Assembly (NCBI RefSeq): GCF_044704955.1
Contig: NC_091996.1
Coordinates: 86,366,001 to 86,430,000, forward strand
Origin: Pristiophorus japonicus
Lineage: Eukaryota
Direction: 5' to 3'
DNA length: 64,000 bases
Part shown: positions 56,468-57,069 of the stretch, piece after piece
How positions within the stretch are numbered: the stretch's first letter is position 1
How the letters are laid out: each line of letters starts with the position of its first letter
The notes under the pieces: generated by a model
Told to the model about the DNA's origin: nothing
The model's database searches: none
Seen by the model: the letters and a program-made list of their open reading frames with translations, nothing else
Made by a program: the position numbers and the translations under genes

Positions 56468-57069
56468 CTAGTGGAGCGAATCGCCACGACCCACTGTAAC
56501 CGGAGAGACGCCCCACCCCACCACGTTCCCGTTAACGTCGCAGCCGTTGCCTCTCAGCAGGAGGCCGACCTCCGCCTCTGTGGCGGCCGCGTCCCACAGG
56601 TTGAAACCCGTCAGCGAACCGGCGAAGGCCGCGGACTCCTCGTCGCTGCCGCCCGTGCGGCAGTCGGCGGTCTCGCGCCCCAGCTGCACGGCGCCTCGCC
56701 CGGGGATGGAGCGCGGCCCGGCCCTCGGGCCGCCCGAGGCCACCGCCCGCCCGTCCACCACCAGCGTCGCCTTGCCGGCTTTGCCGTCCCACACCCCGCA
56801 GTAGAGCGTCCACTTCCCCGTGGGGCCTGCGCGGCTGTCCACCCCTGCGCGGCCGACGGAGAACCGCGCCGCGCCCCGGCTCAGCTCCAGCCGGAATTCA
56901 GCGCCGGCTCTTTGGGTGCAGTAAGAAAAGAGGACCCCCCTCTCCATCGCGCCGCTCGGCTTCGCCCAGACGCAGGCGGTGAAGGCGAGGAGGTCGCGGT
57001 TGACCGCGGGGAGGACGCTGGCTGGAATTCCCTCCGGATGAGCGGCCAAAGTCAATGTCCTCTGGCACC
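56468..57069 (-). CDS. Terminal exon of a long-pentraxin PTX3-like gene encoding the full C-terminal pentraxin domain; upstream exons not found in the window
   Basis: Long polypyrimidine tract and CCACAG| acceptor, phase 1, 200 open codons including the stop. Motifs GCQR, FTACVWAK, LFSY, CGVW, VQLGRE, FAGSLTGFNLWD and GCDVNGNVVGWGV parallel PTX3 GCET, FSACIWVK, LFSY, CGTW, LQIGQE, FSGRLTGFNIWD and SCHIRGNIVGWGV. Confidence 0.88.

Follow-up and report, generated by a model that had tools for sequence, protein, structure and literature searches.

To our knowledge, PTX3 is usually treated as a single-copy gene outside teleosts. PMC9388099 describes human PTX3 as two tetramers joined by C317/C318 disulfides, the chains of each tetramer being held together by a coiled coil in the N-terminal region that includes C47, C49 and C103, and gives His-x-Cys as the start of the pentraxin signature motif. 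In bioRxiv 10.1101/2024.08.14.607909, the salt bridges K230-E313 and R231-E252 link the tetramers and E180-K214 stabilises each tetramer ring, although one sentence there pairs the salt-bridge residues differently from the figure legend; for a variant of the engineered Half-PTX3, binding of four heavy chains to each tetramer is reported at acid pH. According to supplementary rows of PMC9664204, PTX3 is nested in VEPH1 in the lamprey, in sharks, in gar and in human, and coelacanth PTX3 and VEPH1 are on separate scaffolds; the text ascribes the teleost PTX3 duplicates to teleost 3R.

Here we describe a second PTX3-type gene, on contig C20 of the shark Pristiophorus japonicus, whose pentraxin exon lies in the 64,000-nt stretch of DNA that was analysed (the window). 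With a probability of roughly 75%, the best explanation of the data is that it is a transcribed PTX3 paralog, most likely an ohnolog, whose likeliest product would be a one-ended secreted tetramer with an altered pentraxin surface.

Gene structure and transcription

Features of the gene and its neighbours are collected in Table 1. As read from the open reading frame, the coding part of the pentraxin exon (602 nt, phase 1) opens at 57069, where its first two bases finish a split Gly codon; 199 codons from CQR follow, up to a stop ending at 56468. The preliminary description had called this exon intact, in phase 1 and behind a strong acceptor, which was confirmed by the translation, by a Pfam Pentaxin match of 52.7 bits (cut-off 25, E 5.6e-14) and by a splice join to upstream sequence. 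The further exons that it had expected beyond position 64000 were located: exons 1 and 2 are separated from each other and from exon 3 by introns of 5,909 and 22,494 nt, in phases 1 and 1 and with GT-AG sites. The three joined exons equal exactly the 393-amino acid database protein P0002 of P. japonicus (source label 'pentraxin-related protein PTX3-like'), which is 100% identical over the exon.

Three public runs from one study, their run kind not on record, carry the exon or part of it. The contigs of two of the three depart from the genome at the acceptor and enter exon 2: one loose end agrees with the final bases of that exon at 30 of 30 positions and the other at 29 of 30; the contig of run X2 stops short of the acceptor. 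The exon 2-exon 3 splice comes from these reads, which may not be independent of the database gene model, and the exon 1-exon 2 splice from the gene model only. The C20 gene is a transcribed three-exon gene in which exon 2 is spliced to exon 3. Because both introns are kept it is no retrocopy, and a pseudogene is likewise ruled out by the intact frame, the splicing and the two introns.

A motif scan placed an AATAAA at 56159 within the 3' UTR, which also contains a polymorphic 31-nt tandem unit near 56217-56249; one 31-nt copy of the short tandem unit at 56217-56290 is absent from two runs. Run X1 differs from the genome in the exon at window positions 56828, 56877 and 56951 (two silent differences and one Arg258 to Gln). 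Long tandem arrays at 50500-51500 and 61880-63540, and LINE-like reverse transcriptase remnants throughout, were seen by eye, and about 73% of the window has repeat matches within itself or to the other stretches compared.

Table 1. Coordinates of the C20 pentraxin gene and its neighbours (window positions unless a contig is named)
Feature	Position	Strand	Evidence or content
Lysine-rich exon, taken as the CHD gene's	2771..3079	-	Without specific Pfam match
Cytochrome-b5-domain gene, first exon	41143..41475	-	Cyt-b5 E 1e-4, below curated cut-off
NAA38 exon, convergent with the pentraxin gene	44972..45283	+	NAA38 chain of PDB 7mx2, E 8.7e-24
3' UTR, at least this far	55790..56467	-	Run contig cover about 680 nt past the stop
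Exon 3 coding part, whole pentraxin domain, residues 194-393 and stop	56468..57069	-	Translation, Pfam, PDB match
Intron 2 splice acceptor, pyrimidine tract and CAG	57070..57090	-	Motif; run contigs diverge from the genome here
Intron 2, window part, repeat-rich	57070..64000	-	Whole intron 22,494 nt
Exon 2, beyond the window, 450 nt	G000:C20:86445564-86446013	-	C47/C49, conserved helix, C103, coiled coil, C162
Exon 1, beyond the window, 130 coding nt	G000:C20:86451923-86452052	-	ATG, hydrophobic leader, acidic stretch

Protein class

The best PDB sequence match of the exon is human PTX3 (E 1.2e-32), followed by NPTX1 (2.3e-14) and CRP (7e-7); the top six of the 14 matches are all PTX3, at E about 1e-32. 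The predicted structure (mean pLDDT 68, domain mostly 75-95) also resembles PTX3 structures best, with a TM of 0.89 by target length and an rmsd of 2.8 against 8PVQ. The PTX3-subfamily features are present: three exons, phases 1,1 and the domain within the last exon. Hydrophobic residues 1-18 form a signal-type leader by composition, and helices are predicted with low confidence at residues 49-97, 109-146 and 156-178.

Residues were compared in a map of ten rows of this gene and its orthologs (the paralog), 42 ordinary PTX3 rows and two lamprey rows, in cat PTX3 numbering with cysteines at human numbers. The P. japonicus protein has the equivalents of C47, C49, C103 and the C179-C357 pair; C103 is replaced in the Cetorhinus and Carcharodon paralogs. 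The conserved intra-domain pair C210-C271 corresponds to its C226 and C284 and, judged by residues only, is found in all ten paralog rows. In its signature motif Leu replaces His and Val replaces Ser/Thr, with the His kept in nine of the ten paralog rows. There is no N-glycan sequon anywhere in this protein; Asn occupies the N220 column in 5/10 paralog and 22/42 ordinary PTX3 rows. The GQEQD-type loop is the calcium-binding loop of short pentraxins; by eye, it is present in CRP-like frames of the same genome and absent from the C20 protein. Among ordinary PTX3 proteins, that of a skate (P0220, with P0221) has lost C179 and C357 together and has lost C210 while keeping C271; each such disulfide cysteine loss, unusual for bonds so conserved, occurs in 2 of the 42 ordinary rows.

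An ordinary PTX3 gene on contig C6

A genome search gave eight pentraxin matches, the best after the C20 exon itself being on C6 at 200.19 Mb. The C6 gene has the same three-exon layout and phases and is 59% identical to frog PTX3, compared with 35% for the C20 gene; the domains of the two genes of this shark are 34% identical. It sits antisense within a VEPH1-like gene, the exons of which match the N-terminal part of a chimeric fish model and which we take to be VEPH1. VEPH1-like exons were found only beside the C6 gene, and none on C20. The separate PTX3 near VEPH1 that the preliminary description had envisaged is thus present, and the C20 gene as a translocated sole PTX3 is ruled out. A motif scan for NF-kB-type motifs within 1 kb of the ATG found none in either gene and was uninformative.

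CRP/SAP-like frames and a PTX4-like exon were located on C3 (64.86 and 64.89 Mb), C14 (64.79 Mb), C20 (99.11 Mb) and C15 (125.61 Mb). A pentraxin exon on C18 at 107.60 Mb (L003) groups with the carbonic-anhydrase-linked domain and is nearer to CRP than to PTX3.

Phylogeny and species distribution

The protein set, taken from clustered predicted proteins, comprised at least 301 proteins, at least 168 of them PTX3-family by score. FastTree recovered a paralog clade of 16 rows with a support of 99, all from nine elasmobranch species and Latimeria. Records P0002-P0004, P0006, P0007, P0009, P0065, P0079, P0212 and P0214 are the C20 gene and its orthologs from sharks, Mobula and Latimeria.

A domain tree of 21 rows, without genome-derived rows, included PTX4, NPTX, CRP, CA6-linked and hemichordate outgroups. 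It placed the paralogs within a PTX3 group (99/100) and rejected their grouping with PTX4 (p=0.002), upholding the PTX3-like class first assigned from the exon alone; a PTX4, NPTX, CRP or CA6-type domain is ruled out. In a full-length tree of 24 of the 52 rows of the first large tree, the elasmobranch paralogs and the coelacanth protein formed a clade (99/97), which was also obtained from the N-terminal part alone (98/99). The domain alone gave 90/90 for this clade in the 21-row tree and left it unresolved in an earlier domain tree. In that earlier tree, a very long adhesion-GPCR-like row was pulled into the PTX3 group. With lamprey included, ordinary PTX3 was not resolved as one clade at full length (68/27).

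Branches are long and the composition of the C20 exon is skewed (GC3 86% vs 36% in the C6 PTX3). Long-branch attraction could in principle have joined young duplications of separate origin, one on the elasmobranch and one on the coelacanth lineage; the large tree carried a long-branch warning, and in BLAST the coelacanth paralog domain scores 186 with ordinary PTX3 and 144 with shark paralogs. However, AU tests rejected both a chondrichthyan-only duplication (p=0.0002) and a coelacanth-plus-tetrapod clade (p=0.0002), and the split survived (100/99) when lamprey and the two longest elasmobranch rows, Mobula and P. japonicus, were dropped. Most paralogs also have in common an exon-1 motif that none of the aligned ordinary PTX3 rows contains, and the shark and coelacanth copies both adjoin C20-type genes. 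We therefore regard two young duplications as very improbable. Judged from these trees, the duplication predates the split of cartilaginous and bony fishes.

By its sequence relatives, the paralog has been retained by sharks, a ray and the coelacanth, and its reading frames are open in nine elasmobranchs and the coelacanth. The clustered predicted-protein matches listed include no tetrapod, ray-finned fish or chimaera protein in the paralog clade, so loss looks wider than mammals. The gene had been proposed as kept in this lineage and lost in mammals; the second part agrees with its absence from the tetrapod proteins, and the first was too narrow, as other sharks, a ray and the coelacanth have it too. 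The contigs that carry five of the shark paralog records measure 37-286 kb, consistent with a region that is rich in GC and assembles poorly. Two near-identical Heterodontus paralog records, P0003 and P0211, are on separate short contigs and may be haplotypes or a recent duplicate.

The label 'PTX3-like' is no marker of the paralog, since in some sharks and skates it is attached to ordinary PTX3 as well (P0020, P0220). The matches listed by a full-text literature search, with subscription journals mostly outside it, contain no report of a second PTX3 gene from sharks or the coelacanth, and the available parts of PMC5723433 and PMC6795676 make no mention of one. The gene is thus already in databases as a prediction, with no description found in the literature searched; the earlier idea of an uncharacterised protein holds for the literature and not for the databases.

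Genomic neighbourhood and origin

Along C20 the genes run Kv-beta (86.19 Mb), CHD, the cytochrome-b5-domain gene, NAA38, the pentraxin gene, a TMEM88-like exon and a KDM6 gene. A CHDNT exon lies 6.5 kb before the window start, and CHDNT searches matched C18 and C20, with no match on C6. The TMEM88-like exon (L014:3863-4147) had no Pfam or Atlas support and is named tentatively; the exon that follows it belongs to the KDM6 family (E 7.7e-16), with UTY/KDM6A scoring higher than KDM6B. We take this order to be the human 17p13.1 block with a pentraxin added. Of the CHD3-CYB5D1-NAA38 block named in the preliminary description, NAA38 is borne out by its 7mx2 match; the cytochrome-b5-domain gene is presumably CYB5D1, and the CHD gene beside the window presumably CHD3, by position.

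Four of six marker families (Kv-beta, PLD, Dishevelled and eIF5A), a set chosen from human 3q/17p13/1p36 pairs, not blind and with no genome-wide control, are represented on C6 as well as on C20. The papers listed by a literature search for the human paralogon were all on cancer or other medical genetics. Kv-beta is 0.22 Mb away from the C20 pentraxin gene and 1.8 Mb from the C6 PTX3; it is the only one near the latter, the C6 PLD, Dishevelled and eIF5A copies being 43-47 Mb away. P53-family searches matched C6 and C18, with none on C20 even though the neighbours suggest TP53; short exons may have been missed. C18 also carries Kv-beta, CHD, P53 and Dishevelled copies. A further Dishevelled-family match (G000:C10:168656865-168657314) covers 147 model positions unbroken, with one stop, and is possibly a retrocopy or a fourth gene; unlike it, the other three Dishevelled copies are intron-split.

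An old coelacanth model, P0219 'phospholipase D2', fuses a PLD to a paralog part that matches exons 2-3. Over 544 positions its PLD part matches the C20 PLD at 381 and the other PLD copy at 348, with 78 diagnostic sites of C20 type vs 45. The fused PLD is closer to the C20 PLD, and the coelacanth paralog therefore appears to be on the same kind of chromosome. Both P0219 (coelacanth PLD2 and PTX3-like) and P0111 (a fish VEPH1-like N-terminus and a PTX3 exon) are likely annotation artefacts that preserve the neighbourhood.

The tree and the four shared families support the proposal of the preliminary description that the gene is a whole-genome-duplication paralog of PTX3, and we consider it highly probable that one of the early vertebrate rounds produced it. 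The same ancient paralog could instead stem from a small-scale duplication or transposition that preceded the divergence of jawed vertebrates and was unrelated to the genome doublings. The immediate neighbours do differ, the shark gene having NAA38 and KDM6 at its side and the coelacanth gene PLD2; timing relative to lamprey gave an AU p of 0.31 in the domain tree; and the VEPH1-like host exon is absent on C20, though PTX3 is nested in VEPH1 even in lamprey according to the available rows of PMC9664204. Against this, the gene sits among Kv-beta, eIF5A, PLD and Dishevelled genes with paralogs on the PTX3 contig, and it keeps both introns and hence is no retrocopy. Such a small-scale origin seems to us improbable.

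Octamer residues and predicted assembly

Most residues that join the human PTX3 octamer are changed in the paralog. C318 is found in none of the ten paralogs but in 35/42 ordinary rows and in lamprey; E313 is kept in 1/10 vs 42/42, acidic 252 in 0/10 vs 36/42 and basic 230 in 3/10 vs 41/42. G228, invariant in ordinary PTX3, is Cys in eight of the ten paralogs, the same eight that keep C317, and Scyliorhinus and Latimeria have neither the 228-column Cys nor C317. The N-terminal part differs: the P. japonicus protein keeps 13 of 15 conserved N-terminal columns and 42 of 67 in the domain, together with its N-terminal cysteines and both domain disulfide pairs, and has new cysteines at C162 and C244.

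As most contacts that join the human octamer are changed, the paralog may be a natural half-sized version. It would be secreted, and four chains would assemble through the N-terminal coiled coil, which C47, C49, C103 and the new C162 may cross-link. The tetramer-tetramer face would be remodelled such that two tetramers are not joined as in PTX3, and C330, the one cysteine left in the loop, probably bonds to the newly gained C244; the co-occurrence of the two, with about one independent joint loss, hints at such a bond. The product would keep N-terminal, matrix-type binding and present an altered pentraxin surface. We put a secreted one-ended tetramer, a natural 'half-PTX3', at slightly less than even odds. 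One point against it is that E180, the ring stabiliser itself, is also lost (acidic 180 in 0/10 paralogs vs 42/42 ordinary rows). A complex prediction with four copies of residues 156-393 scored 0.02 and was counted neither for nor against.

The two cysteines could also serve the opposite purpose, with the paralog still an octamer whose tetramer link is rewired as an inter-chain C244-C330 disulfide. The new cysteine lies two residues before K230, the human 230-231 and 317-318 loops both face the opposite tetramer in the parts of the structural work available, and the P. japonicus protein retains the equivalents of R231 and E313. However, it lacks their partners E252 and K230, most paralogs have acidic or small residues at 230-231, and Scyliorhinus and the coelacanth have neither cysteine. 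A rewired octamer is in our view rather unlikely.

Alternatively, the gene may be a redundant copy under relaxed constraint, its surface drifting, helped by GC bias, with no ligand specific to it. In a comparison of two sharks, the domain is 59% identical in the paralog vs 86% in PTX3; the GC3 value given above, the missing signature His and sequon in P. japonicus, and the failure to find the paralog in most bony vertebrates point the same way. Yet the frames are open in the nine elasmobranchs and the coelacanth, paralog-specific residues at columns 228, 312, 373 and 377 recur across most sharks, and the N-terminal helix of the paralog is 88% identical between the same two sharks. A drifting redundant copy is about as unlikely as the rewired octamer. 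The one-ended tetramer remains our preferred reading of the residues; the fuller combination of an ancient PTX3 ohnolog forming a one-ended tetramer, its octamer face closed in sharks by a C244-C330 disulfide, is doubtful as a whole.

If the one-ended tetramer is correct, the paralog could act as a natural non-bridging counterpart of octameric PTX3 in the hyaluronan matrix and innate immunity, or might co-assemble with PTX3. The paralog uncouples the octamer face from the N-terminal coiled coil, which is conserved, and so provides a natural experiment on the purpose of the octamer. A second PTX3 as old as jawed vertebrates would also change the history of the family. As sharks have two PTX3-type genes, 'PTX3' matches in shark transcriptomes and plasma proteomes need to be assigned to one of them; an example is the plasma 'PTX3' of the nurse shark, for which PMC9207270 reports a rise following immunisation.

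Comparison with known pentraxins

PTX3 itself (7ZL1, 8S50, 8PVQ) is the closest sequence and fold match of the C20 gene. The two share three exons in phases 1,1 (as in this shark's own PTX3), a signal-type leader, N-terminal helices, C47, C49 and C103 at the same numbers, and equivalents of C179-C357 and C210-C271. Unlike PTX3, the C20 gene lies on another contig and outside VEPH1, evolves faster, has changed C318, E180, E252, K230, Q312 and G228, has gained C162 and C244 and, in P. japonicus, encodes no N-glycan sequon.

The PTX4, NPTX, CRP/SAP, CA6-linked and adhesion-GPCR pentraxins have the pentraxin fold in common with it, but the PTX3 group (99/100) excludes the rows of the PTX4, NPTX, CRP and CA6-linked domains. 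The duplicated PTX3 of teleosts is also a second PTX3 from a genome doubling; however, the teleost copies form a clade of their own (support 100), separate from the elasmobranch and coelacanth paralogs, which rules out a teleost-type ptx3b identity. Since these are a 3R clade, the coelacanth record name 'Pentraxin 3, long b' is misleading. The engineered Half-PTX3 (a C317S/C318S tetramer) resembles the predicted product of the paralog in having no inter-tetramer disulfides; in contrast to it, eight of the ten paralog members keep one loop cysteine and gain another.
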